Virus record (IMG/VR): IMGVR_UViG_3300030104_004308
Location: 1 to 45,802 of that record
Length of the DNA: 45,802 nt
Source of the DNA: a virus
Lineage: Duplodnaviria; Caudoviricetes
Direction: 5' to 3' (one strand)
Of the stretch, positions 60 through 45,802 are shown one piece after another (position 1 is the first letter of the stretch; every line of letters begins with the position of its first letter). The notes beneath the pieces were generated by a model. That model worked only from the letters and a program-made list of their open reading frames with translations, had not been told where the DNA came from and made no database searches. The translations under genes and the position numbers were made by a program.

Positions 60-1598
60 TCAAAATGCCTCCTGATGATATTCTACTTTAGAAACAGAAG
101 CTTCTGTTTGTTTCATTGTTTTTATTTTTATTAATCTTGGTTGTTGTTTTTTTATTCTCATTCTTTCTTCTGATATAAATATATCATCTAATCTTTTTAA
201 CAGATTACCTGTTTTAATTTTATCCATTTCCCAGTTATTCTTTTTTAGAAATGCATAGAAGTCATCCATCCTAAAATATGTAAATTCTTTTTTATCATCT
301 GTGTATGGTAATTTATTAAACACATCGTCCATGGTTCTGGCTGCTTGTCTATTTGTAGTCCAATCTTGTAATAATCCTGTAAGCTGATTCATTGGATTTA
401 AAGACTCTAATGGTTCTACCTCTTGTAAATTGTTCATCATTGGTTTTAAAAAATGTTGTTTCCAATCTTTTGCTTTTGGTACTGGTACTACTAGGTTTGC
501 TTGATCTAAACACGCCAGTGCAAATAAAGGTGAGCTATATAACTGTTCTGTTTTTAATTCGATCCGCGTTCCGTCCACATCTAAAAACCATTGTGGTGGA
601 CTTGATTTGTATTTAGTAAGATTTCCTAGTTGTGGCATTTCCTCTTCACCAAAGCCCACACCAAATCGTTTCGTTCTACACAAACCAGATTGACAGACCG
701 CGTTGATAGGTGCGTCTTTACATCTATACTTGTCATAACCTTTACGATTAACTGATTTAATTAATTGTTGAACCTCACTATTACTTAATTTAGGTTCCAT
801 ATGTTTTATATTAGCTTCTACAATTTTATCTTCCCAACTATCTGGGTGTGCTTGTTTGTAATAAACAGCAATATTAAACAATGCATTATTCCTAGACCCC
901 TCACCAAAACCAACTGATGCCAGTTTGTTTAGACAAGGAGGTCCAGCAGGAAATGCTTCTTCTATCTTTGTTTCTTCAATTTTAATTTCTTTAACTTGTG
1001 TGTTAGTACACGCATATTGATCATACATAGAATAGAATGATTCTAAACTAGCTGCTTGACCTTTATCATCTAAAGCATATCGTAAACCATTAGTGCCATT
1101 ATAATAAGGTAAGTTTAAGAAGTTACCTGTATCTCCACGCTCTACAAGTATTTCTATTTGTTTAGGAAAAATCTCTGATCCTTCATATCCTAAAACTTTT
1201 GCAATCTTTTTAAGTGTACTCTGCATTAAAGATGCAGCTATAAATTCTTTCGTAAATAAAAAAACGTGAGCTCCGCCTGATTTAGAACGGCAAACTATTA
1301 AGGGGAAGTTAAGATGTCGTATGCTTTGAATGAGGCTGCCGTGGTCGAGATTGTAACTGTCAATATCAATACAGCCCCAGCGACACGTGTTATCCTCACG
1401 AATGGGGATGATGCCCAAAGCCGGACCTTCTCCCTGTAAATGCTTCTCCCACAAATCATCGCTAACATTCTTTCGAACAATGAATGCTTTGCCTTTTTGT
1501 TTATCACCATTGGCCGCGACATCACCTTTTTGATATTGTCCATATGCAATCTTTAATCCTTCAAATATATTTTTAAATTTTTCTGTCTTCATTATCAT
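60..1598 (-). CDS. AEP-superfamily DNA primase/primase-polymerase with PriCT-like domain
   Basis: Motif I CIDID, motif II RSKSGGAH, GNFLNLPY; PriCT-like PPCL...GEGSRNNALFN; lies in the replication block. Confidence 0.8.
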   Translation of the reverse strand: MIMKTEKFKNIFEGLKIAYGQYQKGDVAANGDKQKGKAFIVRKNVSDDLWEKHLQGEGPALGIIPIREDNTCRWGCIDIDSYNLDHGSLIQSIRHLNFPLIVCRSKSGGAHVFLFTKEFIAASLMQSTLKKIAKVLGYEGSEIFPKQIEILVERGDTGNFLNLPYYNGTNGLRYALDDKGQAASLESFYSMYDQYACTNTQVKEIKIEETKIEEAFPAGPPCLNKLASVGFGEGSRNNALFNIAVYYKQAHPDSWEDKIVEANIKHMEPKLSNSEVQQLIKSVNRKGYDKYRCKDAPINAVCQSGLCRTKRFGVGFGEEEMPQLGNLTKYKSSPPQWFLDVDGTRIELKTEQLYSSPLFALACLDQANLVVPVPKAKDWKQHFLKPMMNNLQEVEPLESLNPMNQLTGLLQDWTTNRQAARTMDDVFNKLPYTDDKKEFTYFRMDDFYAFLKKNNWEMDKIKTGNLLKRLDDIFISEERMRIKKQQPRLIKIKTMKQTEASVSKVEYHQEAF

Positions 1599-1615
1599 TT
1601 CTAATTAATTTGTAA

Positions 1616-1639
1616 AGGGGGACCTGTGAGAATCCCCCT
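1616..1639 (-). terminator. GC-rich hairpin between SSB-like gene and primase (weak terminator or processing/stability element)
   Basis: AGGGGGA (1616-1622) pairs with TCCCCCT (1633-1639); only a short T run follows on the minus strand. Confidence 0.45.
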
Positions 1640-3409: not shown

Positions 3410-3420
3410 TCTATTATGCT

Positions 3421-3459
3421 CTTGACATCTTATATAGTAGTGTTTATATACTTGTCAAG
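3421..3459. promoter_or_regulatory. Overlapping divergent sigma70-type promoters
   Basis: + strand TTGACA 3422-3427, 17 nt, TATATA 3445-3450; - strand TTGACA (3458-3453), 16 nt, TATATA (3436-3431); sits between divergent genes. Confidence 0.75.
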
Positions 3460-3469
3460 TAGAAAGAAT

Positions 3470-4903
3470 ATGAATTATAAATTTAAGACGACACCCTATA
3501 AGCATCAGCTTACTGCATTAAAAAAATCAGTAGATGAAAAAGAGTATGCATACTTTATGGAGATGGGTACAGGTAAATCTAAAGTATTAGTTGATAATAT
3601 GGCTATGCTTTATGATAAAGGTAAAATAAATGGTGCACTGATTATAGCACCCAAAGGTGTATATAGAACGTGGTTAGAGCAAGAAATCCCCAATCATTTA
3701 GTTGACCATATAAAACCCAAAATGGTACTATGGACTGCTTTAACATCAAAAACAAAGGATAAAGAGTATCAACAATTATTTAAACCTGACTATGACCTTC
3801 ACATCCTTATTATGAATGTTGAGGCATTTAGTACAAAAAAAGGTGCTGAATTTGCATATAAATTTTTAAGTAGTCATAAAACTCTTATGGCTGTCGATGA
3901 GTCTACAACTATTAAAACCCCTACAGCAAAAAGAACTAAAACAATTATTACACTAGGTAAACATGCAACCTATAAGCGTATTCTTACAGGTTCTCCTGTA
4001 ACTAAATCTCCATTAGATTTATATAGTCAATGTGCTTTTTTAAGTGAAGACTTATTAAACCATGCATCTTATTATTCATTTAGAAATAGATATGCACATA
4101 TGGTAGATAGAAATTTTGGTGGTAGAAGAGTACAAATTGTAGGTAGTTATAAAAGACTTGATGAACTAGAAGAAATACTTAAAGATTTTTCTTATAGAGT
4201 ACAAAAAAAAGATTGTTTAGATTTACCTAAAAAAATATTTATTAACAGAACTATTGATTTAACTCCTGAACAAAGCAAAGCGTATGATACAATGAAATCC
4301 GCGGCCCTCGCTCTACTAAAAGGTAAAATTACTACTGCGCCACACACACTTACACAACTTATGAGATTACATCAAATTACTTGTGGTCATCTAAAATCTG
4401 ATGACGGTCAAATAACTAATTTAAAACATAATCGAATAGAAGAATTACTAGATGTCATGAATGAGATGGAAGGTAAAGTTATTATATGGGCTAATTATAT
4501 TCATGATATAGAAGAAATAGTTAAAGCCATAAAGAAAAAACATGGAGAAGATTCTATTGTTCAATACTATGGTGCTATTTCACCTGACGACAGACAAAGA
4601 GCTATTAAACAATTTCAAAACCCTAAATCTCCTGTTAAATATTTTGTAGGTAATACTCAAACTGGTGGTTATGGTATTACACTCACAGCTGCAAGCAATG
4701 TTATTTATTACTCTAACAGTTATGATTTAGAGAAAAGACTACAATCAGAAGACAGAGCGCATAGAATAGGTCAACACAAACCAGTTACTTATGTAGATCT
4801 TATTGCTCCCAAGACTGTGGATGAGAAAATAATAAAAGCTTTAAGAAATAAAATTAATATTGCATCTGAAATTATGGGTGATACTCTAGATGCTTGGATA
4901 TGA
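3470..4903 (+). CDS. SNF2-family (SF2) helicase/ATPase
   Basis: Q-motif PYKHQ, Walker A MEMGTGKS, Walker B VDEST, LTGSP, GYGITLT, motif VI QSEDRAHRIGQ; start moved to ATG 3470, downstream of the promoter. Confidence 0.9.
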   Translation: MNYKFKTTPYKHQLTALKKSVDEKEYAYFMEMGTGKSKVLVDNMAMLYDKGKINGALIIAPKGVYRTWLEQEIPNHLVDHIKPKMVLWTALTSKTKDKEYQQLFKPDYDLHILIMNVEAFSTKKGAEFAYKFLSSHKTLMAVDESTTIKTPTAKRTKTIITLGKHATYKRILTGSPVTKSPLDLYSQCAFLSEDLLNHASYYSFRNRYAHMVDRNFGGRRVQIVGSYKRLDELEEILKDFSYRVQKKDCLDLPKKIFINRTIDLTPEQSKAYDTMKSAALALLKGKITTAPHTLTQLMRLHQITCGHLKSDDGQITNLKHNRIEELLDVMNEMEGKVIIWANYIHDIEEIVKAIKKKHGEDSIVQYYGAISPDDRQRAIKQFQNPKSPVKYFVGNTQTGGYGITLTAASNVIYYSNSYDLEKRLQSEDRAHRIGQHKPVTYVDLIAPKTVDEKIIKALRNKINIASEIMGDTLDAWI

Positions 4904-5315: not shown

Positions 5316-5693
5316 TTACAGATCTATTAATCCCGTTTCTCTGTTTAAATATTTGTATTCTATTTTATGTATATCAAAATCTTTCATAATTTTACTACAA
5401 ATATCATTAGGACTAAAATCACCACAACTATAAACATCTAATTGCATTAACGCAGGTTTAGGTTCGTCCCAAATGTGCATAGCAATGTGAGAAGTTTCAA
5501 TTATTGCGATTGCGGTAATACCTCTATTACCAGGCATCGAGCAATACTTAACATAAGGACCCATAAATACTTTCATATTTATAGATTCTATAAATTCTCT
5601 CATCCAATGTTGTAATTGTTCTTCGTCTGTTGGTGGTTTGACTGCCTCCGCACGAATAATTAAATGTTTATGAACCAGGAGGCTGTTTTTCAT
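5316..5693 (-). CDS. speD: Pyruvoyl-dependent decarboxylase proenzyme, S-adenosylmethionine decarboxylase (SpeD)-like
   Basis: HKHLII N-terminus, GITAIAIIETSHIAMHIW self-cleavage region, LDVYSCG; start set at ATG 5693, just after the endolysin stop. Confidence 0.8.
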   Translation of the reverse strand: MKNSLLVHKHLIIRAEAVKPPTDEEQLQHWMREFIESINMKVFMGPYVKYCSMPGNRGITAIAIIETSHIAMHIWDEPKPALMQLDVYSCGDFSPNDICSKIMKDFDIHKIEYKYLNRETGLIDL

Positions 5694-5697
5694 GACG

Positions 5698-6150
5698 CTA
5701 TATCTCTTCGTATTGAGTTTTACCAGCATCATTACGAAAGGCACGCAAAGTTTGTTTTCGATTGCCTTCTTCGTTGTATGATACATGTAGCCATCCGCTA
5801 TTAGCGTCGCCGTCGTAAAATTCTAAAATTGCTTGATCAAATTCTAGGTTTTGAGTAATCCAATCAAAGAGTTCTCTATTGTCAACTCCATAACATTCAA
5901 AGTCTGCCGCCTGGCCTCTGCAGTGCTGGGATTTTCTACTACTGCCGATTTTTTCTGATAAAATTTCAGAGCGATATCCTGATGATACACTTACAACGCC
6001 CCACTCATCTCGTACAGGTTGCAAAACGTTTTCGCAAAGCAACTTCAAATTTTCTATGTGTTCATCTGTAGGTTGATTAGATATGCCATGACGCTGCGCT
6101 GTCTGCGAAGCAGTTAATTCTTTTAAAGAAAAGTTCTGACTTAATTTCAT
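5698..6150 (-). CDS. Peptidase M15A-family Zn peptidase, probable endolysin
   Basis: LSQNFSLKEL, SSGYRS, SQHCRGQAAD, WLHVSY zinc-ligand motifs; start at ATG 6150 (ATGA overlap). Confidence 0.85.
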   Translation of the reverse strand: MKLSQNFSLKELTASQTAQRHGISNQPTDEHIENLKLLCENVLQPVRDEWGVVSVSSGYRSEILSEKIGSSRKSQHCRGQAADFECYGVDNRELFDWITQNLEFDQAILEFYDGDANSGWLHVSYNEEGNRKQTLRAFRNDAGKTQYEEI

Positions 6151-9300: not shown

Positions 9301-10579
9301 ATGATTTAGCTAATTTGTAAGATCTTCTCTCTATACTCTCTAATAATTTTTCTGTTCTTCTTGCAGCTCTTTTAATTTCTTGTCTTGCTGCTGTGTTTAA
9401 AGAATATTGTGTACCTGTTTCTCTACCTAATGATCTTATGTAAGATAATTTATTATCTAAACCTTTTAACGCTGCCTCTAAAGGTTTAGCACTTGTTACC
9501 GAAAAAGTTCTCCAGTTTTTAAATGCTGGTAATGTAGCGGTCCATGTAGTTTTAAGAGGTGCACCAAAAGCCGGTAGTACGATCCGCGTTCCAAGATCAC
9601 CTACTACTTTTTTTCCAACTGTATTAGCTAATTGAAATGGTATTTGTATACCCGGAATCTTGCCAATTAATTTAGAAGCTCCTGACACAGGAGCGTTTAT
9701 AGCTTTAGCACCAATACCTAATACGTAAGTACCTGGCTTGTATAAACCATATCTAGCACCAACAGGTAAAGCTTTACCTGCTAAAGAAAAACCAAATCCT
9801 ACTGTAGCTCCTTCTGCACCAAATTTTATTTTATTTATAAATCTAGCCGCAGCTAAATCTCTTCCTGTTTTACCTTCCTCATTAACTCTTTCGTAAAGTA
9901 ATGCGGGTCTAGAAGACTCTGCTACTAACGCATCAGCTGCTCCTAAAGCTAATCCGGATTGACCACCACGTCTTGCTATACTTGTACCAAGTTTTGCAGA
10001 TCTTCTTAAAAATTTGTTTTTAATTTTACTTAAGCTAGCTCTAAATGCTCCGTAGCTTTTAGCTATATTACCTAGTTTAGGTATTTGATTAATTAATTTT
10101 AAAGTTAATGTACTTGGAACTCCATATTGAATACCAATTCTAGTAAGATCTCCTGTTAAAGTTTTAGGACTTCCATGATCAGCTATAAACTCTTCTGTAA
10201 CTTTATCTAATTCTTTCGTGTAATTAGTATCAAAAGCATAATCGACAGGAATAGTAAGAAGTTCAGATAAACCTTTTATAATTCTTCCTGTTCCACCAAC
10301 AACTGCTGCTTGAAATTCTCTTCCAGCTGTAGTTTCATTAGGACCTAGATCTTGTTCAAAGATAGTTTCTTCACCTTTTTCTTTTTGTCTTTTGTTATAA
10401 ATATCTAAAGCAAGACCAATTCCTAAATTCATTGGACTTGATCTTAAATTATCTATAGCGTCACCCGGAACGACTTTTACTTTTCGTTCGTTAGACCTTC
10501 TTTCTAATACGTTATTTTTGGTATTTTGGTTTTGAATTATTTCTTTAACCAATTGCGGTGACAAAGACCTATCAGCCAT
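6341..10579 (-). CDS. Large putative internal virion/DNA ejection protein
   Basis: 1412 aa; last of four coupled genes after the tail genes, the position of podoviral ejection proteins; PFGNFVSFPAEMLR motif. Confidence 0.6.
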   Translation of the reverse strand: MADRSLSPQLVKEIIQNQNTKNNVLERRSNERKVKVVPGDAIDNLRSSPMNLGIGLALDIYNKRQKEKGEETIFEQDLGPNETTAGREFQAAVVGGTGRIIKGLSELLTIPVDYAFDTNYTKELDKVTEEFIADHGSPKTLTGDLTRIGIQYGVPSTLTLKLINQIPKLGNIAKSYGAFRASLSKIKNKFLRRSAKLGTSIARRGGQSGLALGAADALVAESSRPALLYERVNEEGKTGRDLAAARFINKIKFGAEGATVGFGFSLAGKALPVGARYGLYKPGTYVLGIGAKAINAPVSGASKLIGKIPGIQIPFQLANTVGKKVVGDLGTRIVLPAFGAPLKTTWTATLPAFKNWRTFSVTSAKPLEAALKGLDNKLSYIRSLGRETGTQYSLNTAARQEIKRAARRTEKLLESIERRSYKLAKSFEGKYNTAKTSPASMDYYLDGVLEYLKGQRTLNSLPKDLRVTSQALNKDLLEIKKTFGELLPAGDLKDAVLKNLKGYMRKSFAIFENPGYAVPETSPLFKKAKQYALNLINGKGGGQFRVEAKKVFGAPGVSVGRARELQAESMVKEVLRLGKQDMFDPIQNLNKIGESLKIKNFIATGEELPTVIKNLLGQQNTLKSSVLTTTSSMVTQTTNKMLFDRLATELTKARILFKSEEAAKRAGITNPAVVSGARGLGEMKTLLQDVKKPLYGASDIVEALTSTKGPLDAWLQSGVYKNLLQLKTGVQYGKTVLSPETQVRNFYSAAMFPMARGVIGGRASVTEAIAMVVDDIFRAGKGNAQAELRLLDNINEGIKYGVLDENIVASELQAVLREVRNGKIASVEGLAKFLEKNPFTEKAARLYAGGDNVWKWYTYNWYKSFTKDLFKGDLNKARTWFKEIAGRDLLSKTLSGQKVDIDEAIRQAASWYTRNTIPTYSKVPIAIQALRRTPFGNFVSFPAEMLRTTFNNFAISMKEASSTNPELRAMGIRGLFGLYTTLGGISYATKGLYNSITGVDDELMNLYKLYFAPEYMKNSNLLALSKPDKGNFKVVNLSDFIPQSVVIEPLEAVFAKIREGKALGDVDALEVTFGPNGPVRTFFESYLTTPIGFEPFIDVGRGRTDTGKIIWSPTDSLGDKWNKSWKHILMTLEPGIITSSRKFYDSIIKQPTPSGVLRETGDVVIGASTGLKPFNASIAEALDYKVSDFSRIRTDVFKGEKLYKFNDIYTRGGPVIVNEFIDIQREAFRLQKEIYGAIKAAEAWGMSKRDIRKVFKARTGLSTKQINDIMRGRFTPVNYSKSLFEKKVDILKKREKEQGFDYELDKNFVYPKRGLNRVIRKLKRDKLDEEFFYDRPVKNDLRGFLPQINLNEPKATVSAQPVKPKVQPLAPQPQPTKIAATAPAVNPNTLLTRSESALLSPTEQQIRLNQRT

Positions 10580-10580: not shown

Positions 10581-11603
10581 TTATGCCTCCTGTGGTAATA
10601 CTAATTCAACTCCGTATTTACTATTAAAATTATCTACATCTGATTGCGTAGCAATTTCAGCAAAGTCTGCTAGCGCTTCATAGCTTGTAGCTAAAAGATT
10701 TACGATGTCATCAGTTATTTCTTTTGGTAATCTAGCTCTTAATTCATCATAACTTATTTGTGTAGGTTGAGGATTTGTTACTGTCTCTGTTTCTTGCACG
10801 TTAACATCTGTTATTCCAGCTGGTGTGGCTGTCATTAAATTCATATCTTCTGTAACTGATCCACCTTCAGCTAATCCTGCATCAAAATCACCTACTAATC
10901 TTAATAAGTATTCTACAACTGCTTCGTTAATTTCTTCTAAAGTTGCATCATCACCTAAACTATCTTGAACTGTTTCAGTAACTGCTACAATTGTTTGAGG
11001 ATTTAAAATTCTAAATTTAGAAGCTTTGTTACCACCTCTAGCTATATCTAATTTAACTTCATCTCTTTTAGCATTAAGTGTTGCTATTTCTGTTTCATCT
11101 TTTGCAGCAGCAATTTTTTTGTCATAAAATTTATCGACTACATCTAATTGAACTTCTGTAGCTGTTTTCTTATCAGCTTTAGCCATTCCTACTTTGTAAT
11201 CTAAACCTGCACCTGTAAGAGAGGTTGCAAGATCTTGTCTTGATTGTCCTCTTGTATCCATAGAACTCGCTATGTCTGTTCCTAATTTTGCTAAAGGTTT
11301 AGATGCTGTAGCCAATGCTCCTGAAATTCCACCACCTTCTGATGGTCTTCCTAATAAATCTAAACCAGCACTAGCTACTCTTAAATAATCACTTGTACTT
11401 AATCCTCTTCGTTCTGGAATACCTCTTAAAATTTCTTCTCTCATACTTAATACTTCTTCACCAATTCCTGAATAACCACCTGGACCATCTACCAATCCTC
11501 TTTTATTTGGCATACCACCATTAGCCAAACCAGAAGCGATCCCCGTTCCGTAGCTTGATGCTCGGCCTCCTCTAAACATTGGTCTTCTTAAAATTCTACT
11601 CAT
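10581..11603 (-). CDS. Putative internal virion protein
   Basis: 340 aa; MSRILRRPMFRGG N-terminus; LANGG and LAEGG motifs; acidic C-terminal domain. Confidence 0.5.
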   Translation of the reverse strand: MSRILRRPMFRGGRASSYGTGIASGLANGGMPNKRGLVDGPGGYSGIGEEVLSMREEILRGIPERRGLSTSDYLRVASAGLDLLGRPSEGGGISGALATASKPLAKLGTDIASSMDTRGQSRQDLATSLTGAGLDYKVGMAKADKKTATEVQLDVVDKFYDKKIAAAKDETEIATLNAKRDEVKLDIARGGNKASKFRILNPQTIVAVTETVQDSLGDDATLEEINEAVVEYLLRLVGDFDAGLAEGGSVTEDMNLMTATPAGITDVNVQETETVTNPQPTQISYDELRARLPKEITDDIVNLLATSYEALADFAEIATQSDVDNFNSKYGVELVLPQEA

Positions 11604-14621: not shown

Positions 14622-14953
14622 TACCTATCCTCTCTGTTCATTTCTAATATAGATGCAACTACATCAACTGCACCACTTGTACATTCAACCTTTAATACTT
14701 CACTTTCTTCCATAACTAAAGGTTCTGTTAATACTTGTTCTGTTTGATTAGCAGATAAATCAACATCATTATCAACTACAAAACTAGTGCCTCCTGCATT
14801 AACTAAAGTAACTTTAACAACCGCTGCACCACCTGCATCTTCTGCTACGTTAAGTGATTTAACAATAGAACGTGAATTTGCTGGCACTGTATAAAGTACA
14901 GTTAGTGCTGTTGTCGTTAAACTTACTTTTTCATTTTTATAAATATTAGCCAT
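14621..14953 (-). CDS. Small beta-rich structural protein
   Basis: 110 aa; similar pattern to 28285-28611 (LYTVP...IV...L.V...LVME...L.V). Confidence 0.55.
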   Translation of the reverse strand: MANIYKNEKVSLTTTALTVLYTVPANSRSIVKSLNVAEDAGGAAVVKVTLVNAGGTSFVVDNDVDLSANQTEQVLTEPLVMEESEVLKVECTSGAVDVVASILEMNREDR

Positions 14954-15110
14954 AGAACCACGTAAACCTTTCTTGATTTTCTTTTTGCTCTGTTAAAAAT
15001 GTAGAGTTTAATTGTTCTACAATTAATGCAATAGATCTGTTAATTTGTCTTTGGTTATCTACTTCGTATTCTTCTTTAGGTTCTGGTATTCTTACATTTA
15101 CTTTAGGCAT
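14946..15110 (-). CDS. Small hypothetical protein, 54 aa (absent from ORF track)
   Basis: MPKVNVRIPEPKEEYEVDNQRQINRSIALIVEQLNSTFLTEQKENQERFTWFYG; TAATG coupling at 15110; fills the gap exactly. Confidence 0.7.
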   Translation of the reverse strand: MPKVNVRIPEPKEEYEVDNQRQINRSIALIVEQLNSTFLTEQKENQERFTWFYG

Positions 15111-17158
15111 TATCTTCTCCCGTCTGGTTGTAGGTCAGCTTGAAACGTTCCAAATCTCCACGCTTCACCTGATCCTGTGTTTTCTATTTTAATCGCAGCA
15201 TATCTACCACGAGCTCTTGTATCTACTTTAGTCGTAGTTGAAGTAATTGTAAAGGGACTTAAAGCTGTAGCTGTATTAGGATCTGCAGGATAAGCAGCCA
15301 CAGATATAGTAACGTTTGCATTACCTGTTAATGTTTTAAAGTTAGGTAAAAATCTACGCATAGCTAAAAAGTATTCAGCTGCACCTTGATCTGTTTGTAA
15401 AGAAAAATCATAAGATTGTATAAAAGAAGTTAATGCTGTAGTTGACCCATCAGGATTAATTTGATCGGTCCCCGTTTCGTGCTCAAATAATGTGCTATTA
15501 CCTAAACCTGATAATCCAACAACTGCAGGAAAAGTTCCTGATCCGCTAGAATTGTATGAAGTAGCGTATGGTAATGGATAAACTAATGAATCAATCCAAC
15601 TTGTTCTAATAGCATTAGTATTAACTCCTGTATACCAATTGCCCATAGGCACTTTCATATTAGCATCACCATAGTTATAACTTACATATCTATTATTAAA
15701 ACTAGAACTAGATGTTGGGTACCACCACGTTACTTCTGTAAATAAATTATTAAGACCAGCACATACTTGTTGACCTTTAGTTGTATCAATATCATCAAAT
15801 ACATAATCTTCTACAGAACATGCTAATGTTTTAACTGTACCATCAAAACCAAAAAAACCATTGTTACTCATCCAATAAGCAACACCATCTATTTCTGTAA
15901 CTGCGTTCTTACCAATTAATCCACAGTTAGTGCCAACTTGTTCAAAGCCAAATGTAAAAGGAGCTCCAACAAATTTCATTGTATACAAAGCATTATCAGT
16001 CCAAATAAGAATTGTTTCTTTAGCAACTAACGCAGATATAATTTTAGTTCCGTCTTGTAATCTAAATGAACCGGCTGTGTTGGTAGCTAGTGTAGTAAAT
16101 TTGTTTAGTTGTTCTGAATCAGAAAATCTAATTAATAAGTCATCTTGAGTTGTGGCATCTCCAATTGTTTCCTCTGTGCCAAAATGAATTAAGTGTCTTG
16201 TTGTAGGAGAAACTAAAGTTAATCTAGATTTAGTAGGATTACCTACCGCTGCTCCATCACTGTTAGTTCCAATTAAAGTTGCAAAAGGAGAATCAACACC
16301 CGTTAAAGACCCATCGGTGCTTGGTGTAGATACTGATGCTCTTTGTGATGTAGGATCTGCTGCTCCACCATTCCATGTAAAAGTTTTACCATTAGCAATA
16401 GTTGCAATTAAAACTTCACCAAAAGAATCAAAAGACCAAAGTCCTGGTTCTAAAGTTTGTGTTGAAGCTGCTACTGCAATTCCCCACCCTGTATCTGATC
16501 CACCTGTTACTACACCACCAAAAGTAGAAATACCAAAACCATAACCATACTCTTGTTCTGCTGGACCAACAACTTCATAAGGTTGAATATCAACTGTTCC
16601 ATCAGATGAAGTAGCGCTAGCTGCGTTTGGTATTGTGGCTGTAAATGTAGTTAAACTTGGTACAGAAATAACTTGTACAATTTTATCTTCTAAATCACTT
16701 GGTGTTATTCCACTTGATCCAGCTGCAAAATTATTAAAGACAACCATGTCACCCACAGACAATCCATGGCTAACTGGAGCTCCACCATTTTTAGTTGTAA
16801 CTGTTATAGTTGTTGAAGTATTTGTAGTCTCTACACTTGACGTTAAGTATTGTATTTGAGTTCCGGCGTTATCAGTTCTAAACGGTGTAATGTCAAACAG
16901 TTGTCCTTCAAAATATAAAAGTAAAAATTTATCTGTGCCTACAGCAACATATCTATTTCCATCGTTATCTACAAAAGGAAACATCTTTCTTGTAACACCT
17001 ACCATTGTGTCTGTTAGCAAAGATTGCCAACCACCAACTTTTTCTGGCAAACCATATCTAAATCTTACATTATCAGAATCAGTCCATCTTCCAATAGCAC
17101 CAACTTTAGTGTCTTGTTTATCTATTCCAGGGGCAAATTTAATTTGAGTTAGAGCCAT
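15110..17158 (-). CDS. Tail stabilisation/nozzle protein (P22 gp10 / tail tubular B-like)
   Basis: 682 aa beta-rich; WTDSDNVRFRYGLPEKVGGW, IRFSDSE, NTAGSFRL, GTNCGLIG, DTRARGR; position in tail block. Confidence 0.7.
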   Translation of the reverse strand: MALTQIKFAPGIDKQDTKVGAIGRWTDSDNVRFRYGLPEKVGGWQSLLTDTMVGVTRKMFPFVDNDGNRYVAVGTDKFLLLYFEGQLFDITPFRTDNAGTQIQYLTSSVETTNTSTTITVTTKNGGAPVSHGLSVGDMVVFNNFAAGSSGITPSDLEDKIVQVISVPSLTTFTATIPNAASATSSDGTVDIQPYEVVGPAEQEYGYGFGISTFGGVVTGGSDTGWGIAVAASTQTLEPGLWSFDSFGEVLIATIANGKTFTWNGGAADPTSQRASVSTPSTDGSLTGVDSPFATLIGTNSDGAAVGNPTKSRLTLVSPTTRHLIHFGTEETIGDATTQDDLLIRFSDSEQLNKFTTLATNTAGSFRLQDGTKIISALVAKETILIWTDNALYTMKFVGAPFTFGFEQVGTNCGLIGKNAVTEIDGVAYWMSNNGFFGFDGTVKTLACSVEDYVFDDIDTTKGQQVCAGLNNLFTEVTWWYPTSSSSFNNRYVSYNYGDANMKVPMGNWYTGVNTNAIRTSWIDSLVYPLPYATSYNSSGSGTFPAVVGLSGLGNSTLFEHETGTDQINPDGSTTALTSFIQSYDFSLQTDQGAAEYFLAMRRFLPNFKTLTGNANVTISVAAYPADPNTATALSPFTITSTTTKVDTRARGRYAAIKIENTGSGEAWRFGTFQADLQPDGRR

Positions 17159-17168
17159 TGATTAGCTC

Positions 17169-17900
17169 CTAGGTATTTTTGTAACTCCAACCTCTAGTAC
17201 TGTTTAAGTAAACTAATGTAATAGCTTGACCAGCAGTGCTTAAAACTAAATTACCTGCTGCGCTATTAAGGTTAGAACCATTTGGATTAATTGTTAAGTT
17301 GTTAGAACTAAATGTAGCTAACGCATCTATAATTGTTACCTCATCTCCTACGCTAGGTGATGCAGGTAAGTTAACTGTAAATGGGTTAACGTTTGTGCTA
17401 CAAATTAATTGATCTCCGGCTACTGCTAAATAAGGTGCATTAGAGTCAGAGATTGAATTGTATCCTTTTTGCATAATACCAATAGTCGTATCTGTGCCAT
17501 CTGATACTAATAAAAGTTTTGAACCTGTTGGTACAGGAACAGAACTAGCTGATCCAGTCGTCAATACACTTAAAGTTCTATTTGATGTACCTCTTACAGT
17601 TGCGTCTTCAACTATAAAAACTCTAGTTGCTGTACCACCTGTTGTCGTAGCAGGCATAGTTAAAGTTCTGTCGCCTGCTAAAGTACCTGTTAATTTTAAA
17701 TATAAATTTTTACCATTCGCTGTCGTACCATCAGCTAAACTTAAAGTAACATTACCTGAAGCCATATCCACAGTTGTATATCCTGTAGCTGCTTGTTCTA
17801 AAATTTCTAGATTGGTATTAGTGATTGTGCCCCATAAACCAGCTTTTTCACCAGTTGTTATTTTTTCTAATGATATATCCGTTGAGTATGTTGAAGCCAT
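17169..17900 (-). CDS. Tail/baseplate-type structural protein
   Basis: GEKAGLWGTITNTNL N-terminus; C-terminal VNLPASPSVGDEVTIID repeat-type domain seen in T4 gp9/gp10-like proteins. Confidence 0.55.
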   Translation of the reverse strand: MASTYSTDISLEKITTGEKAGLWGTITNTNLEILEQAATGYTTVDMASGNVTLSLADGTTANGKNLYLKLTGTLAGDRTLTMPATTTGGTATRVFIVEDATVRGTSNRTLSVLTTGSASSVPVPTGSKLLLVSDGTDTTIGIMQKGYNSISDSNAPYLAVAGDQLICSTNVNPFTVNLPASPSVGDEVTIIDALATFSSNNLTINPNGSNLNSAAGNLVLSTAGQAITLVYLNSTRGWSYKNT

Positions 17901-18360: not shown

Positions 18361-19395
18361 CTACCTCGCCGTGGCTACATCGCCATTTGTCGAAACGATG
18401 GGTTGACCGAAGGCCATATATGTATATGAATTACCTGATGTATTTACATCATCATTAGTATCTATAATTTTAAATCCATTAGCATATATATTCATGTAAT
18501 CATTAGTAAATTCTGCATCAGTAGCGTTGGCTAATAATTGTTGGTTGTCAGGATTGTAACCAATTCTTTTATCATCCATTATAATCCAACCTTTACCAGA
18601 CTGTTCTCTTTTTATCATAACCCAAGCTGGTTTAAAGCCACAATAAACATAAGGACCATCAGCATTTCCATTTCCAATATATTGTCTGCCAATTTTACTA
18701 AATCCTTTTTTTTCTGCAAAACAATAAGCAATCATAGCACTTGCAGAATTTACTGGTCCAGTAGTTCCAATACTAAATACATTTGCATCTGGTGCTGTGC
18801 TTTGCCAATAAGTTGAACCACTTTGTGAACCAGAAGTTTCATTTAAGAAAAAATAAGATCCCCATCCAATACTATCAGTACCAACAGCCCACTCTTGTGC
18901 TGATGCTAAAGGTTTAGTTATAACTAATCTTGGTGCAACTCCAAGTCCATGACCTACTGTTGCATTTGAACCTGTGCCTGTGTAACTTACTATTGAAAAT
19001 CCACTTGTTGTATCAACAGAAACTGTTGAGCTAATTGTACCATTTCCATTGGCTGAACCTGAACCATTAGCTTTAAAATTCCAAGATACCATAGTCTGTC
19101 CTGATTGATTCACTTTATAATCAGAAGCATCAGAACCAAGAGTAAATCCATCAGTGTCAAATGCAGTTAAAGTATCTGCATCTGTTTGTTCTGTATCAGT
19201 AGAATTAGTTTGTATAAGTTTTGTTGCTCCTCTTACTGCATCACAAAGTCTATGTGCACCAGTGCCATCTCTACGTTTTAGCCAAACTAAATCAGGTTGA
19301 AACCCGACGCCTGTAATAGCATTAGTTGCACCTGTACCTGTATAAAGTATAGGGTTCATATAAGATGTTGATTTTGAAATTGTTGAATAAGCCAT
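18361..19395 (-). CDS. Cassette 3 gene C: beta-rich tail/receptor-binding partner protein
   Basis: LYTGTG...ITGVGFQPDLVWLK, GHGLGVAP, GFKPAWVMIK, YMAF; paralog of 21615-22661 and 25064-26134. Confidence 0.7.
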   Translation of the reverse strand: MAYSTISKSTSYMNPILYTGTGATNAITGVGFQPDLVWLKRRDGTGAHRLCDAVRGATKLIQTNSTDTEQTDADTLTAFDTDGFTLGSDASDYKVNQSGQTMVSWNFKANGSGSANGNGTISSTVSVDTTSGFSIVSYTGTGSNATVGHGLGVAPRLVITKPLASAQEWAVGTDSIGWGSYFFLNETSGSQSGSTYWQSTAPDANVFSIGTTGPVNSASAMIAYCFAEKKGFSKIGRQYIGNGNADGPYVYCGFKPAWVMIKREQSGKGWIIMDDKRIGYNPDNQQLLANATDAEFTNDYMNIYANGFKIIDTNDDVNTSGNSYTYMAFGQPIVSTNGDVATAR

Positions 19396-20705
19396 TATAC
19401 GTTTAATCCTTTTGTTGTTAGGGGTTGATATCCAGTAGGTACATCGTATTCAAATGTTCCCGGTGTTGAAGCTGATGTGCCTGCTGATGTTACTGCCGTA
19501 GTTGCAAAGTAACCATTTCCAAAATTACAATTCCACACAGTACCAGCATAACTTGATAAAGCAAAGGTATAAGTTGTATTTGCTGTTAAACTTAAAGCTC
19601 CTGTTCCGCTAGCACCGCTTGTAGGATCACCACTTTCTTGCCAAGTACCATTTTTACTAAAATAAATTTTAGAGTTGTCTAAATCCATAGCTACACCAAT
19701 AATATCATTATTCACATAACTAGTTCCGTAAGATGCACCACCATTAGATGCCGTGCCATTATTTTGATAACCTTGTCCTGTACTGTCTTGACCAATGTAC
19801 CATGAACTTGAAGAATTTTGTTTTTGATTATCTATATCTACTGCACCTATAATGCAATTACTTCCACTTGATATTAATTTAGCTTCAAAATAATATTTTC
19901 CACTTGAATCACCTAGTGTAGGTAATATAGTTTTCCAAGCACTTCCACTACCTCCGTTTGCAGTTGTGGCCCCATTTGTGTTAGCTTGCCACTGATTTGC
20001 AAAATGATATGTTTGATTAGTTAAAACACCAAAGTTGTTAGATGGACAATCTAAAGTTGGTGTACCACTTCCTGACATTGTAAGATCATTTGTATTACCT
20101 GATGTATCATCTCCTAAAGCAGATGTATCTTCAAAAGTAAGTTTAAAACCAGTACTACCGTAAGTTACTGAAGGATCGGCATTTGGCTTCCACTCGCCCG
20201 ACGTAGAATCTGTAGATCCAAAAGTAGAGGCCGCGTATTGAGTACCATCTATATATATAACTTGAGACATTAAACCATCAAAATAATTATCACTATTGCC
20301 ACTTTGACCAACGTAACAAGTTGTTCTAGTAACAAAATCTGTATTTATTGCTCCATAATCTACAGATGAAAAAGAAGTAATTTGTTCTCCATTAACATAC
20401 ATTTTAATTCTATCAGTAGATACTGCTTGAGTTGAATCTACTGCAATTACAACATGGTACCAACTTGAATTATCTTTATAAAGAGCTGTTGTTTTTGTAT
20501 CTGCTTCTGTACTTCCATCATATGCTTGCTTTATACATAATTTACCACTTTCAAAAAACATTCTAACATATCTTACAGAGCTTTCTGCAAATGATAAGAA
20601 AGCACCATTAAATGCAGATGATGCTGGTTTTAACCAAGCCGAAAGTGTAAAAATGTTTTGATTTGCTGCGTTGTCTGCTGCTTTTGTTAAATATGTTGAA
20701 GCCAT
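19395..20705 (-). CDS. Cassette 3 gene B: concanavalin A/LamG-like plus SPRY-like domain protein
   Basis: FTLSAWLK, WYHVVIA, KMYVNG (LamG); GKYYFE, IIGVAMDLDNSKIYFSKNG, NFGNG (SPRY). Confidence 0.75.
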   Translation of the reverse strand: MASTYLTKAADNAANQNIFTLSAWLKPASSAFNGAFLSFAESSVRYVRMFFESGKLCIKQAYDGSTEADTKTTALYKDNSSWYHVVIAVDSTQAVSTDRIKMYVNGEQITSFSSVDYGAINTDFVTRTTCYVGQSGNSDNYFDGLMSQVIYIDGTQYAASTFGSTDSTSGEWKPNADPSVTYGSTGFKLTFEDTSALGDDTSGNTNDLTMSGSGTPTLDCPSNNFGVLTNQTYHFANQWQANTNGATTANGGSGSAWKTILPTLGDSSGKYYFEAKLISSGSNCIIGAVDIDNQKQNSSSSWYIGQDSTGQGYQNNGTASNGGASYGTSYVNNDIIGVAMDLDNSKIYFSKNGTWQESGDPTSGASGTGALSLTANTTYTFALSSYAGTVWNCNFGNGYFATTAVTSAGTSASTPGTFEYDVPTGYQPLTTKGLNV

Positions 20706-36331: not shown

Positions 36332-36820
36332 TTATATGAAATGAAGAACTGATTCAGGATTTTTAATGGTCCCTATCACTTCATCATCGTTTAGTATCCG
36401 CACTTCTCCACCTTCAATTGGTAATCTTGAACCCGCATAACGAGCAAAGATAACCCAATCTCCTTTTTTACACCAAGGTCCTGATGTATTAAATTTTTCT
36501 TCTGTATAACATAATGGTCCCATCTTTAAAACGTAACCACATGTTGTTGCAATTCTTGCTTTATCTAAAGTTTCTTGAGAATAGATTAAACCACCTTTAC
36601 TTTTGCTAGGTGGTGTAAATGGTAAAACTAATATTCTCCATCCTGAAGGTTCAGGTAATTCTTTAATTAATTCGTCCCCAATATTGTCGGGATTAAGAGG
36701 TTCTTTTTCTTCTGGTGCGTTTTTGTTAATTTCTTTGTATTTTTCTTCTAACGCGTTAATGTGTTTCGGAACTTCCGCCTTTGGTGTTTCCAATGTCGAT
36801 AACGTTTCCTTTTTCATCAT
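36332..36820 (-). CDS. groES: Co-chaperonin GroES (Cpn10)-like protein
   Basis: PSGWRILV, KSKGGLI, G.V..MGP, KKGDWVIFARYAG, RILNDDEV. Confidence 0.85.
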   Translation of the reverse strand: MMKKETLSTLETPKAEVPKHINALEEKYKEINKNAPEEKEPLNPDNIGDELIKELPEPSGWRILVLPFTPPSKSKGGLIYSQETLDKARIATTCGYVLKMGPLCYTEEKFNTSGPWCKKGDWVIFARYAGSRLPIEGGEVRILNDDEVIGTIKNPESVLHFI

Positions 36821-39173: not shown

Positions 39174-41648
39174 CTACTTTTTTCCAAAATTTCTACCAAA
39201 ATCGTGAATCTTACTTGCATCAGCCATACCTTGTTTAGCTAATGACACTCCTGCACGTAATTTAGCCAATTGTTCGTTCTGAACTAGCTTATCTTGTTGA
39301 TTTTCTTGGTTCATCATCGCTTTTGCCTTGTCTAGATTCATTCTTTGGTTTTCATTTTTCTTTTTCTGCTCTAAATCAGCAGCTCTTAAGTCAACTTCTC
39401 TAGCTTTTAACTTAATTAGTGGGTCTCCACTAAATTCACCCATGATTTTTTGCTCTTCGTCCATATAATCTTTAGTCATTTCGGCAATTAACACCGCTTT
39501 TCTCGCATTTATCGTTTGAGTTAGTTGAGTTACTTGTTGAATTAACTGTTGATTCTGTGGATTAACTTTTAATGCCTGTCCAAGTTGTTGTGCTTGCATT
39601 AATTCTTGTTGAAATTCTAATTGAATTTGTTCTTGAGCCATTAAACTTATTCTCTCAAGTATATTTTTCTGTAATGCACCCATAACCATAGGTGAATTTT
39701 GTATCATATTAGATTTCATAAAGTTTAAGTGTGCATCAATGTGTGCTTTATGGTCTTGACCAGGAAAAGCTTGGAAAGGTTTACCAGCCATCGCTGCAAT
39801 TTCTTCCATACTTGGATCAATTGGAGTTGGTTGTACTGGTGGTGGTAAAATAGCATTTACATTTTTAACACCAATCGCATTGTACATAGATCTGTATGCT
39901 TGATAAAGATCATGAACTTCTGGATTTGATTGAGCTAGTTGTAATTGTATTTGAGCTAAATTAATTCTTTGTGTTTGTGAGAATATATTTGGATCAGCTA
40001 CAGGAACAATATCTATTCTGTCATCAAAATCTTTTACTTTAATATTTCTTGTAGCACCAGGAACATCATAAGGATATTCAGCTGGTAAGTAAGTTTTAAA
40101 AACTTGTGATAATAATTTAAATTCTTCTTTTAAACCTACGTATAATCTTTTGTGTATAGCTGACATTACCCGCGATCCACGTTCCAATAACGCCACTGTA
40201 GTACCCACGGCTGCTTGTTGGTTCATATCTCCCACTTGTGCATCAGCGATGGACGCGAAGCGTTGACCTGCTTGAACTACAATCCCCATTAATTGTAATA
40301 AAGTCTGATCAGGACCTTTAAATGGTAATTGCATAAATTGATCTTTAATATTTCCGCCAGGTGCATCTACATCTCTAAATTCACCAGGTTGTAATGGCTG
40401 TGCATCATCTCTAATTCTTATACCTCTAGTTTTAAAACCAGCTGGTAAGTTAGCTAGAGTACCTGCATCTAATAACTGTCTTAATGCAGCTGTTGCAGTT
40501 CTAGATAAACCACCAATCATGTGAATTAAACCAAAACCATAGAATCCTGTGCCCGGTAAAAATTTAAATTGTACAAAATATTCTTTTTTCTTTTTTAATG
40601 GATCATTAGGTTCATAGTTTCTTCTAATAGATAAAACTTTTTGAGAAGACTCATCAATTGTAATAATGTAAGGTAATTTAATTCCTGTTGGCTCATTATT
40701 TTCATCAACATCAGGATAATCTTCTAAATCTAAATTAGTATGTATCTCTAACAGAGTATACATGTTATCGTTTTGCTGATCGTTTCTTGTAACGCCTTCT
40801 AATTCTAATTGTTTAGTTTTAATTTCACTTTCGTTAATTGGAGGTTGTCCTAATTCTACATCTCTATAAAAACCACCCACTTGTTGTTTTCTTAAGTCGT
40901 TTTCAGAAATTCTAATTACATGTATTACTGAATCTGCATCATCTAAACTATTTGCAGTGTATGGCACAATTAAATCTTCTGCTTGTACAAATTTGGATAC
41001 GGCTCTACCTAAAAGATCGTCATAATAAACTTTCTTAAAAGTAGAACCGGTTAGGGGTAGATAGAAAAGCATTTGATCAAACTCTGGTTCATATTCTTTC
41101 ATCTGATCCATAAGTTGATAGTTCATAAAATCTTTTACTCTATTCGCTTGGTCTTGTTTTTCGTTTGTAACATCACCTAAAATTTGTGCACGCACAGGAC
41201 CATCTGCCGGTAATAATTCTTTGTAAGCTTGTGCTTGGAATTGTGTAACCGCTTCAGCAAGTACAGGGTGAGTAACACCTGATGCACCTTTGAATGGTTC
41301 TGTTCTTCTCTCGTATTTGAAACCTAATAAATTTAAACCTTCTCTATAAGAGTCTGCCCAGTCAGCTCTTGATTCTTTGTATTCTGTGTAATTATCATAA
41401 AGAGAAGTTCCAATCTCATCTAATGATTCATCACCCATAAGTTCAGCAAGGTTATCAAAATGTCCTTTTGATTCTAAAGCTTCTGCTCTTGGATCAAAAG
41501 AAATTTCAGCACCACCTTCGTCATCCATAGTGATTTCTGTTTCTGCTTTTGTAATTACTTCTTCTGTGCCCGGAACGCCTACTTCGACTTCTTTTGTTTT
41601 ATCTTCGATGTCTACGTTGGGTAATGATTTATCTACGCTATCTACCAT
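39174..41648 (-). CDS. Portal protein
   Basis: 824 aa; PF.GASGVTHP.L.EAVTQFQA, DQMLFYLPL.GS.FKKVY, RQLLDAGTL.NLP.GFK, VGTT.ALLE; long C-terminal coiled coil (P22-type). Confidence 0.9.
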   Translation of the reverse strand: MVDSVDKSLPNVDIEDKTKEVEVGVPGTEEVITKAETEITMDDEGGAEISFDPRAEALESKGHFDNLAELMGDESLDEIGTSLYDNYTEYKESRADWADSYREGLNLLGFKYERRTEPFKGASGVTHPVLAEAVTQFQAQAYKELLPADGPVRAQILGDVTNEKQDQANRVKDFMNYQLMDQMKEYEPEFDQMLFYLPLTGSTFKKVYYDDLLGRAVSKFVQAEDLIVPYTANSLDDADSVIHVIRISENDLRKQQVGGFYRDVELGQPPINESEIKTKQLELEGVTRNDQQNDNMYTLLEIHTNLDLEDYPDVDENNEPTGIKLPYIITIDESSQKVLSIRRNYEPNDPLKKKKEYFVQFKFLPGTGFYGFGLIHMIGGLSRTATAALRQLLDAGTLANLPAGFKTRGIRIRDDAQPLQPGEFRDVDAPGGNIKDQFMQLPFKGPDQTLLQLMGIVVQAGQRFASIADAQVGDMNQQAAVGTTVALLERGSRVMSAIHKRLYVGLKEEFKLLSQVFKTYLPAEYPYDVPGATRNIKVKDFDDRIDIVPVADPNIFSQTQRINLAQIQLQLAQSNPEVHDLYQAYRSMYNAIGVKNVNAILPPPVQPTPIDPSMEEIAAMAGKPFQAFPGQDHKAHIDAHLNFMKSNMIQNSPMVMGALQKNILERISLMAQEQIQLEFQQELMQAQQLGQALKVNPQNQQLIQQVTQLTQTINARKAVLIAEMTKDYMDEEQKIMGEFSGDPLIKLKAREVDLRAADLEQKKKNENQRMNLDKAKAMMNQENQQDKLVQNEQLAKLRAGVSLAKQGMADASKIHDFGRNFGKK

Positions 41649-43614: not shown

Positions 43615-44732
43615 TATGAATAATCACTAAATGTTGATGGGTCATTGACTGATGAACCAAATGTTCCTTGAGTTGTTTCACCAGGTCCACCACTCATAGA
43701 CTCTGCATCTCTTATCTGTCTTAATGCATTTAATCTATCAAACTCACGTTGTGCTGCATCTTGTTCTTCTTGTATTCTTTTATTTCTTTGATCTTCCATA
43801 AAGTCATCAAATCTATTTTTAGCAGCAACACCTTTATCTCTTACAAATTTAAAAGCATTTAAAGCTGGAGACATTGATAACAATGTTTGAAGAATGCCTT
43901 TGTCTTCATTAGCTGCTTCATATTCATAATCAAAAACATCTTTACTTAATCCTGTTGGATTAATTCCATAAGCTTCTGTTTCATAATCAAAATTTTTATT
44001 TCTATTTACATTAGTTATACCTGATCCACCATCACCTTCTTGTCCTGGTATAATAATTGGTTTTATAACAGGAGGAACAACAGGAGCAGCTGCTACTCTT
44101 GTAGGTTGTACTTGATTTTGTAAAAGAGAACTAACGGTTTGAGGTTGAGTTGTTCCCACACCAAACAAATCTTCGTATTGTTGTTGAGTATATCTATCTT
44201 GTAAAGTTGGGTTAGATAGATAAGTACCTATCACGTTTGATATTCCTCCACCTGTATTAAAATTAACTCTGCCACCATAAGCTTTTTTAGTTGGATCATC
44301 TTTGTTTCTTTTTTTAAAATTTCTAATAGCTTCTCTGTTTTGTCTTGTTAATTTTTTATATAATTCTCTTGTAGATTCTTGCATAACTAATTTAGGATCA
44401 ACAGCTTCTTTTACTTTTGTAGTTTTAGGAGCTTGTCCTATCTTAACATCTTTACCTTTACCTTGTTTCATTAGCATATTCATAATGCCTTCAGGTGACA
44501 TCTTTGATGTCTTACCTTTTACAGTTACAGGTATAGTACCTTCTGGTTTTGTAGGTCTGGGTTTGAAAGGATTTGTAATTCTATCTTTTGGAAATTGAAT
44601 AACTTTTTTAGAATCAATAACTTTCTGTCTTGCTTTTTGTTGTAGCTTTAAAAGATCAAGTCCTTTAGGCAAAACTCCTCGAGCTGCCTTGTATGCTTTG
44701 ATCATTAAATTTAAAACTTGTAAATAACCCAT
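43614..44732 (-). CDS. Orphan protein, basic N-half and acidic C-half joined by tandem GG motifs
   Basis: 372 aa; KAYGGRVNFNTGG; TAATG coupling on both sides. Confidence 0.55.
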   Translation of the reverse strand: MGYLQVLNLMIKAYKAARGVLPKGLDLLKLQQKARQKVIDSKKVIQFPKDRITNPFKPRPTKPEGTIPVTVKGKTSKMSPEGIMNMLMKQGKGKDVKIGQAPKTTKVKEAVDPKLVMQESTRELYKKLTRQNREAIRNFKKRNKDDPTKKAYGGRVNFNTGGGISNVIGTYLSNPTLQDRYTQQQYEDLFGVGTTQPQTVSSLLQNQVQPTRVAAAPVVPPVIKPIIIPGQEGDGGSGITNVNRNKNFDYETEAYGINPTGLSKDVFDYEYEAANEDKGILQTLLSMSPALNAFKFVRDKGVAAKNRFDDFMEDQRNKRIQEEQDAAQREFDRLNALRQIRDAESMSGGPGETTQGTFGSSVNDPSTFSDYS

Positions 44733-45802
44733 TAATAATATTCCCGTTGTACCCGAGGCCTAGATTGATCTTTTTCATCTTCAGGGTGTGTAATAAATCC
44801 TCCCTGTCTAAATCTCATAACTGCTTGTGTTGTACTGTCGACCAAATCGTCGTTATCTCCATACGGAAATGCAGCACACTCTTCTACCACTTCTTCAGCA
44901 AATTTTGTATCAGGCGCCCAAATCATCCCTGCCTCAAAAATCGGGGATACGGCGTTTACTCTAGCATGTTTGTCGTTTCCTTTACTAGGTGTGTAATTTA
45001 TAACAGGAATACCCATCTTACGCAATTCATAAGTTAAGGGTAATCCAGATGCTTTACTTTCCACGATCACCGTTTCGGGATTCCAATATCGATACTGTTC
45101 AAGGGCTGCTTTACGCAGTTCGGGGAACTCTAATCGTTCTTTTAAGGCATCAAGTAAGATTAAGTGAGGTTGACTATCAGGATCTGGAATAAATACACCC
45201 CACGTCGTAATAGCAGAAAAGTCAGCAGTTTCTTTTTTTAAAAAGGCCGTATCATAAGATTGTATGACATGTTGTAATGGCGGTATATAATCCTTATCCC
45301 AAACTTTCCACCACTCACGTTTGATCAGCGATCCTTCTTCCGCTGTTGGATTCTGCATCCATTGTGCGTTCCATTTAGGAACAGATAAAGATGCTTTTAC
45401 AGATTCTAATTCTTCTAGTTTCCAGTAACCAGGCCAAACAGGATTACCTGATGGTAGTATTGCAGGAAACTCAATAACTTCCCACTGATCTGATTTTAAT
45501 TCTTTTTGTGATTTCATTAATGCACCGGTTAGATCTTTCATAGACCATCTTGTCATTACCACCACAATCGCTCCGCCTGGTTGTAGACGTTGTCTTGGAC
45601 CAGAAGTATACCAGTCATAAGCACGTTCTAATGCAGTCATATTAAGTGCATCTTGTTCAGAGTGTGGGTCATCGATAATAAGTAAGTCCGCACCACGGCC
45701 CGTGATTGCCGATCCAACACCGGCTGCGTAGTATTCACCGCCTTGTTCGGTTTCCCATTTACCTGCTGCTTGCGAATCTTCTTTGAGTCTAGTTCTAAAT
45801 AT
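44732..45802 (-). CDS. terL: Terminase large subunit (5' end outside window)
   Basis: Frame open to the window edge: AGVGSAITGRGADLLIIDDP (Walker B), MTRW, QSYDTA, VESKASG, DDLVDSTTQA nuclease motifs. Confidence 0.95.
   Translation of the reverse strand: MFRTRLKEDSQAAGKWETEQGGEYYAAGVGSAITGRGADLLIIDDPHSEQDALNMTALERAYDWYTSGPRQRLQPGGAIVVVMTRWSMKDLTGALMKSQKELKSDQWEVIEFPAILPSGNPVWPGYWKLEELESVKASLSVPKWNAQWMQNPTAEEGSLIKREWWKVWDKDYIPPLQHVIQSYDTAFLKKETADFSAITTWGVFIPDPDSQPHLILLDALKERLEFPELRKAALEQYRYWNPETVIVESKASGLPLTYELRKMGIPVINYTPSKGNDKHARVNAVSPIFEAGMIWAPDTKFAEEVVEECAAFPYGDNDDLVDSTTQAVMRFRQGGFITHPEDEKDQSRPRVQREYY

Follow-up and report, generated by a model that had tools for sequence, protein, structure and literature searches.

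KOPS (FtsK-orienting polar sequences) and Chi, the polar motifs of bacterial chromosomes, are asymmetric, G-rich words that lie within genes a few kb apart and whose orientation, set by position, flips at a fixed point. Short direct-repeat arrays are familiar from the T7 heptamers beside the genome ends, the SPP1 pac boxes and lambda cosB, and ribbon-helix-helix (RHH) proteins such as omega2 bind heptad arrays. To our knowledge, polar phage motifs are either borrowed host words (Chi) or operators oriented with transcription. Here, we analyzed IMG/VR record IMGVR_UViG_3300030104_004308, a 45.8-kb viral fragment of 35.6% GC (positions 1 to 45,802, hereafter the window), which carries an oriented tandem repeat of a 7-bp unit, G-R-N-N-C-G-N on its G-rich strand (hereafter the heptad). 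The heptad resembles KOPS and Chi in all the respects listed above, but it is a degenerate tandem repeat, is rare in likely host chromosomes and is probably read by a phage-made protein. Like the recognition repeats of T7, SPP1 and lambda, it forms direct-repeat arrays beside terminase genes or genome ends; those repeats are confined to the packaging locus, whereas here mini-arrays are selected genome-wide, in two opposite arms.

According to the accessible part of PMC12315714, phages rich in oriented Chi use the word of their host, and the heptad differs both from the KOPS consensus and from the Chi words cited there. The Cluster A stoperators and the 17-bp repeats of Cluster O are, like the heptad, phage-specific, genome-spread and in part intragenic, and stoperators are also asymmetric (PMC4351075, as far as available). 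However, stoperators follow transcription in that account, whereas in HTVC023P-like phages the strand of the heptad disregards it; heptads are direct repeats, unlike the Cluster O sites, which are inverted pairs of 7 bp whose orientation carries no meaning. The heptad lacks the transcriptional orientation of stoperators: its sites run antisense in the SNF2 helicase gene, and 14/15 independent sites oppose gene direction in the HTVC023P-like arm from the stabilization gene (stab) to terL. The phage primase, with AEP, PriCT-1 and a predicted TcpK/Cch-like winged helix, recalls the NrS-1 AEP primase (PMC8718748) and TcpK (PMC6137059); in the available portions of these papers, primase sites span 3-8 contiguous nt and TcpK boxes 9 nt. 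The winged helix of the phage does not co-vary with the heptad.

Literature searches, whose coverage of subscription papers and supplements (PMC9599517, a bioRxiv preprint) was limited, found no description of this element, which is real, selected and apparently undescribed. HTVC023P-type phages are among the most abundant marine viruses. Across this globally dominant pelagiphage family, a phage-specific repeat that is oriented by position and takes precedence over codon choice would add a new layer to phage genome architecture.

The heptad and its sites in the window

Four exact copies of a 13-mer lie in the window in a single orientation (560-572, 9580-9592, 11537-11549 and 40173-40185). The 13-mer is made of two tandem copies of the heptad, and the sites hold two to four units. 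Those recognized in the window are as follows:

560..572, minus strand: two-unit site in the primase gene (around amino acid 343), exact match; relatives have the full rare-codon site or default codons
4294..4314, minus strand: three-unit site antisense within the SNF2 helicase gene; top synonymous-constraint peak
9580..9599, minus strand: two-unit site and an in-register CTT-type unit in the gene of a 1412-amino-acid internal protein, exact match; kept in G041
11537..11549, minus strand: two-unit site in open reading frame 10581-11603, exact match; kept in 023Pt_psg01, L085, L106 and L107
15466..15478, minus strand: two-unit variant in structural gene 15110-17158, 2 mismatches; top peak among 17 sequences
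40165..40185, minus strand: three-unit site within the portal gene, where it is read in another frame, exact match, found in HTVC023P too; fifth-ranked peak
45056..45076, minus strand: three-unit variant in terL, 2 mismatches; kept in a subset of 25 terL sequences
45329..45341, minus strand: weak possible site in terL, 2 mismatches; present in L027 and L078
45688..45701, minus strand: two-unit site in terL; top synonymous-constraint peak

Chance and codon artefact were both rejected as the origin of the motif. None of 100 dinucleotide shuffles of the window gave any exact copy, and in 1000 codon-preserving shuffles of the window genes the exact motif occurred 0.002 times on average and at most once, with 0/1000 reaching four. 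The degenerate two-unit pattern occurs 6 times against 0 on the opposite strand (codon-shuffle mean 0.043), and the union pattern 10 times against 0 (mean 0.21). Moreover, a de novo scan of the window ranked the motif first among dispersed words. The initial annotation, which had reported an oriented motif at the coordinates of the exact copies and judged it unlikely to arise by chance, is thus borne out by the shuffled expectation as well as by the empty opposite strand. Allowing 1 mismatch added no copies to the exact four in the window; two near matches with 2 mismatches were confirmed (15466-15478 and 45064-45076), and at 3 mismatches the count was near chance (16 vs 8.8, reached by 2/100 shuffles). 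In window-like phages, a CTT-ending unit is enriched in register upstream of the sites (6/65 vs 0.9 expected). Sites were mapped by degenerate patterns and a simple score, so that weak ones may be missed. A peptide motif was rejected as well, the sites being read in differing frames and, in one gene, antisense.

The synonymous codons of relatives indicate selection on the sites. In the SNF2 gene, five codons of the site are fixed in 48-58 of 63 sequences, the top constraint peak; this copy had been called a weaker one, and although it is indeed present, it proved to be the most constrained stretch of the gene. At 45688-45701 in terL, which had been overlooked along with the tandem 7-bp unit and the flip of polarity at a fixed genome place, the key codons are fixed in 18-20 of 21 sequences, with a background use of 6-14% for three of them. 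At the primase and portal sites, relatives tend to carry the rare-codon site complete or else default codons; the portal site is fifth among the peaks (72 portal sequences) and the primase site falls below the top ten peaks, because only part of the family carries them. Judged from these comparisons, the tandem 7-bp repeat is maintained by selection within genes. With codons that are fixed or all-or-none, and a strand that is independent of the gene, the proposal of a polar DNA-level signal holds, as does the expectation of reduced synonymous variation in relatives. The suggested dependence on GATC methylation does not: the best-conserved sites (SNF2 and terL) and most HTVC023P-type sites have no GATC, which is therefore dispensable.

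Polarity and arrays in related phages

By core-gene homology and synteny with HTVC023P, HTVC027P and 023Pt_psg01, the window is an HTVC023P-type podovirus (pelagiphage). Its portal is 69% identical to that of 023Pt_psg01, 62% to HTVC027P and 54% to HTVC023P; with 023Pt_psg01 it shares an identical gene order and identities of 80% (terL), 81% (major capsid protein), 75% (SNF2) and 77% (primase). The available parts of PMC9599517 and bioRxiv 10.1101/2019.12.14.876532 describe this type as a widespread pelagiphage group. Pelagibacter would be the host of the window phage, going by its cultured relatives, and read mapping (only contigs were returned) found the phage in marine sequencing runs. Three clades were set by primase type: A (window-like), B (HTVC027P-like) and C (HTVC023P-like). 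The primase tree itself is uninformative, because the HTVC027P and HTVC023P clades each sit on very long branches.

Across 165 loci searched with up to 2 mismatches, 153 matches lay on the marker-gene strand and 3 on the opposite one, many being orthologous copies; in 113 stretches of the SNF2 gene, all matches were on the non-coding strand. Sites scoring at least 5 numbered 835 in 2.17 Mb of clade A, 488 in 1.26 Mb of clade C and 12 in 0.90 Mb of clade B (raw counts, redundant and on both strands), so that HTVC027P-like phages have about 30-fold fewer than the motif-bearing clades. Compared with codon shuffles, clade A showed a 25-fold enrichment of the two-unit pattern on the main strand, clade B lacked the pattern and clade C had it enriched on the other strand (small weighted counts of about 2). 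The spacer base preferences differ between A and C, and a de novo word search of HTVC027P-like sequences revealed no dispersed motif that clearly takes the place of the heptad. HTVC023P, which bears the motif, and the motif-poor HTVC027P infect a common host, HTCC1062; this natural contrast makes the role of the dispersed sites directly testable.

Polarity was mapped in 33 genomes or long records. A de-duplicated tally was made from 14 A and 12 C records (G044, G067, four B records and DSL-LC04 were set aside), with arm boundaries placed at gene landmarks picked after the map had been viewed. In clade A, forward sites outnumbered reverse ones 40 to 1 on the stretch running from terL round to terS, while reverse sites prevailed 14 to 1 between terS and terL. 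In clade C, the ratio was 14 reverse to 1 forward from the stabilization gene via the replication and early genes to terL, and 3:0 forward from terL onward; the reversed arm spans half of the genome, and these 14/15 sites oppose the main gene direction. DSL-LC04 (51% GC) gave 10:1 and 10:3 in its two arms, the reversed control giving 3:3 and 3:4. Polarity diverges upstream of terL in A, C and DSL-LC04, and converges at terS in A and near the antipode in C and DSL-LC04. The arms measure about 55:5 kb in window-like phages and are near-equal in HTVC023P-like phages and DSL-LC04. Orientation is fixed by genome position and flips beside the terminase genes; the polarity map and the antisense SNF2 sites demonstrate that position, not the gene, sets the strand. 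The polarity also points to where the packaging start or origin of the family lies.

Longer arrays cluster in the same zone. Scanning IMG/VR for at least 4 units returned 108 loci with up to 19 units and 35-74% GC. Eighty of these had 3-kb flanks, of which 33 carry genes of the HTVC023P-type family and 30 carry terS or terL. The array is upstream of the terminase gene in 30/30 loci and, in 27/30, about 240-630 bp from its estimated start (starts were extrapolated from alignments); its sense is that of terL in 17/19. HTVC023P-like genomes have a reversed array of 3-4 units directly upstream of terS, and in DSL-LC04 a dense array precedes terL by about 0.3-0.6 kb. In addition, A and B phages carry arrays of up to about nine CTT-type units in the early region (HTVC027P, L160, at 16501, 17370 and 17694; oriented G043 at 40377; G001 at 58215, 59123 and 59645; G066; G067), so clade B retains arrays while lacking the dispersed sites. 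Such arrays directly abut a TTGACW box in 4 genomes, on the minus strand, and one extends through the 3' end of a VRR-NUC-like gene.

Candidate readers of the heptad

The balance tips slightly toward a phage-encoded equivalent of KOPS or Chi, in which a phage protein would read oriented heptads radiating from a terminase-side hub, steer the packaging or replication machine and distinguish phage from site-poor host DNA, with arm lengths that changed from clade to clade and a dispersed code that one clade has lost. The dispersed sites probably signal direction to a DNA-handling protein made by the phage, for which the packaging terminase is the leading candidate. An oligomeric phage protein would read the unit, and a degenerate unit at a fixed 7-bp period would indeed fit an oligomeric duplex-binding domain; orientation would then guide a machine moving along DNA. 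In the specific form that we place first, at a probability of roughly 0.35, this protein is TerS, a Terminase_2 family protein. Long arrays upstream of terS or terL would form a pac-like hub at which packaging starts, and the dispersed copies of 2-4 units would act as one-way signposts showing a DNA-tracking terminase complex the direction of the hub. It comes first because packaging usually starts at places like those that the long arrays occupy. A possible packaging link had been raised in the initial annotation, and the 30/30 arrays upstream of terminase genes lend it support.

Several observations weigh against TerS. Its identity is 31% between the motif-bearing clades A and C and 52% between A and the motif-poor B; its putative recognition helices are also dissimilar. 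The two opposing arms of HTVC023P-like phages and DSL-LC04 misfit a one-way packaging motor, so that an additional, hypothetical search step is needed. The switch zone also contains origin-like repeats and early promoters, and the non-coding space upstream of terL is also simply a place that can accommodate arrays. Of the 11 loci in which the array opposes terS, 10 begin with an identical array, and these probably represent one lineage. Finally, 47/80 flanked loci have no family gene nearby, so the unit is not unique to the HTVC023P-type family, and among 26 of these with scanned neighbors several adjoin unrelated capsid, portal, tail or integrase genes.

It is tentatively possible that the sites instead mark fork direction, the polarity switch being a replication origin. 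In each arm, the sites would then occupy the template of the lagging strand and serve to load or reload the AEP-PriCT primase via its winged helix, for site-specific priming or restart. This stands close to the TerS proposal because two equal arms and iteron-like repeats resemble replichores. In all five C genomes covering the zone, a triple direct repeat with a 56-65 bp period starts within about 75 bp of the last reversed site (HTVC023P, L164, at 14932-15065; G051, G054, G055 and G060), 2.3-2.6 kb upstream of terL. The primase (60..1598, minus strand) consists of AEP, PriCT-1, a beta/alpha domain and a predicted C-terminal winged helix (amino acids 398-501, nt ~96-407); no helicase domain was seen in it, and it looks like a SaPI/Cch-type replicase minus the motor. 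The winged helix was predicted with a pLDDT (predicted local distance difference test) of 82, and its best match was TcpK (Z 8.0, root-mean-square deviation 3.4, 91 aligned), then Cch (7.6). According to the available text, tandem repeats are bound by TcpK (PMC6137059), and an 8-nt site has been described for a phage AEP (PMC8718748). However, a Z of 8 is a middling score, and the winged helix shares 13% identity between A and C against 26% between A and motif-poor B. About 25 kb of the window (15.5-40.2 kb) has no strong site, though weaker ones are possible, which is too long for routine Okazaki priming, and the ~55:5 kb arms of window-like phages would require a linear template or a fork trap. 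GC skew at four-fold sites is slight and mixed, with the expected direction in two regions (+0.08/+0.04 vs -0.02/-0.05) and the opposite in a third (+0.06 vs +0.12).

It seems unlikely that the unit is amplified by phages but read by a protein of the host (a translocase, nucleoid protein or end-processing enzyme). Similar arrays do occur in unrelated phages, no gene is common to A and C but missing from B apart from a few structural and oxygenase paralogs, and no candidate phage protein co-varies cleanly with the motif over the three clades and DSL-LC04. The host genomes speak otherwise. Across 251 alphaproteobacterial genomes the strict pattern reached at most about 5 per Mb. The likely host family (61 genomes) was assigned by exact match to a SAR11 probe (G341, G454) taken from the PMC11066056 supplement, as far as accessible. 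The two-unit pattern occurs 0-5 times in 60 of these, a level no higher than that of the reversed control, and 28 times, vs 54 for that control, in one; by comparison, the 45.8 kb of the window contain 6. Shorter forms also fell below the control (30 vs 76 in G341, 11 vs 86 in G487), an imperfect control in that reversal swaps CG for GC. These tallies include the unpublished G085, G284 and G508, on which alone no claim rests. The 30 sites of G341 form three strand blocks, two of which agree and one of which disagrees with KOPS-consensus blocks, and the shorter forms gave no clean two-arm skew in G341 and G487. Relatives of G006 and the 25-genome order of G099, which are not confirmed hosts, had no enrichment either. 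The pattern is rare in the likely host family and, since it is not enriched there, the heptad is not the host Chi or KOPS site that had been suggested. Moreover, base preferences vary by phage clade, and HTVC023P and HTVC027P differ in the motif on one host. The unit is kept in loci of 35-74% GC and is rare in likely hosts, which favors a phage-made reader.

A Chi of the phage's own appears quite unlikely. An AddAB-like machine made of a UvrD-type helicase and a PD-(D/E)XK nuclease would halt at the sites, sparing phage DNA while site-poor host DNA is degraded. Both genes are present (UvrD-helicase, E 8e-30; PDDEXK_1, E 3e-5), hosts are site-poor, the 2-25 kb spacing would suffice and the orientation of the sites relative to the switch parallels that of Chi on replichores. 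Oriented Chi enrichment in phages is known from PMC12315714, in the part available. But Chi is read as one short, contiguous word on a single strand, whereas the heptad forms periodic arrays with as many as 19 units, the two genes are non-adjacent and both occur in the motif-poor clade, and no AddB-like subunit appeared among the annotated or Pfam-scanned genes, although no search was aimed at AddB.

Least probable is a transcription-linked operator (a stoperator-like roadblock or antitermination site) bound by a small RHH-like protein: this protein, with a similar beta strand, is found in A, B and C (L162 10602-10778 and orthologs), CTT-type arrays abut TTGACW boxes in 4 genomes and polarity in window-like phages largely follows the main transcription directions, but 14/15 independent sites over half of the HTVC023P-like genome oppose the main gene direction, DSL-LC04 has a dense array and clear polarity yet no RHH match in six frames at E<=1, and no common -10-like box was seen by eye after the window sites. 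The AP2-like orphan put forward as a binder was not recovered, as no AP2 domain was found in 30 window proteins scanned with Pfam (55 open reading frames used).

Other features of the window and related records

Three further stretches of the window are of note:

3416..4903, plus strand: SNF2-family helicase gene, the sole large gene read oppositely
18361-27484, minus strand: three paralogous pairs of tail-fibre-like genes in series (phrog_27411; phrog_24898/19943)
44732..45802, minus strand: terL (terminase large subunit), 5' end cut by the contig, with terS and the polarity switch outside the window

No strong motif site was found in the tail-fibre-like region (18361-27484). The SNF2 gene and its neighbor diverge from starts separated by only a few bases (3409/3416), which means that their promoters must lie within genes. 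HTVC027P is reported to lack an RNA polymerase of its own (PMC12753301).

A G-rich element, GGGTGGGCCC, occurs in 1-6 copies upstream of terL and next to early promoters, always on the minus strand (seen in 023Pt_psg01, L162, at 15431-17850 and in many terL loci), and terL is also preceded, at about 70-180 bp, by a near-palindrome of the GGGWCCC type. Either may be a genome-end or pac feature; published genomes of these phages are reported as circular assemblies. Periodicity and RHH profile tests, the only ones applied to CRP-902 (first 50 kb) and Caulobacter phage RW, found no strong 7-bp arrays. Heptad arrays were also seen in unrelated, mostly GC-rich phages or prophages (L579-L655, e.g. 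L579, L590, L595, L600, L605, L613, L626 and L632), some contigs having several in both orientations.

An 18.8-kb related-phage contig (L266/L276, G006:C15; portal 68%) occurs in a small AT-rich alphaproteobacterial single-cell genome, which possibly links these phages to a host outside the large SAR11 family; the close group of G006 is small. A SAM-V search of 49 small genomes found nothing. Among auxiliary genes, the window encodes an S-adenosylmethionine decarboxylase (5316-5786, minus strand) and GroES (36332-36820, minus strand). Finally, further strong synonymous-constraint peaks unlike the heptad were observed in SNF2 (around amino acids 11, 114 and 127), in the primase (around 87 and 189) and in the terL frame (around 258).

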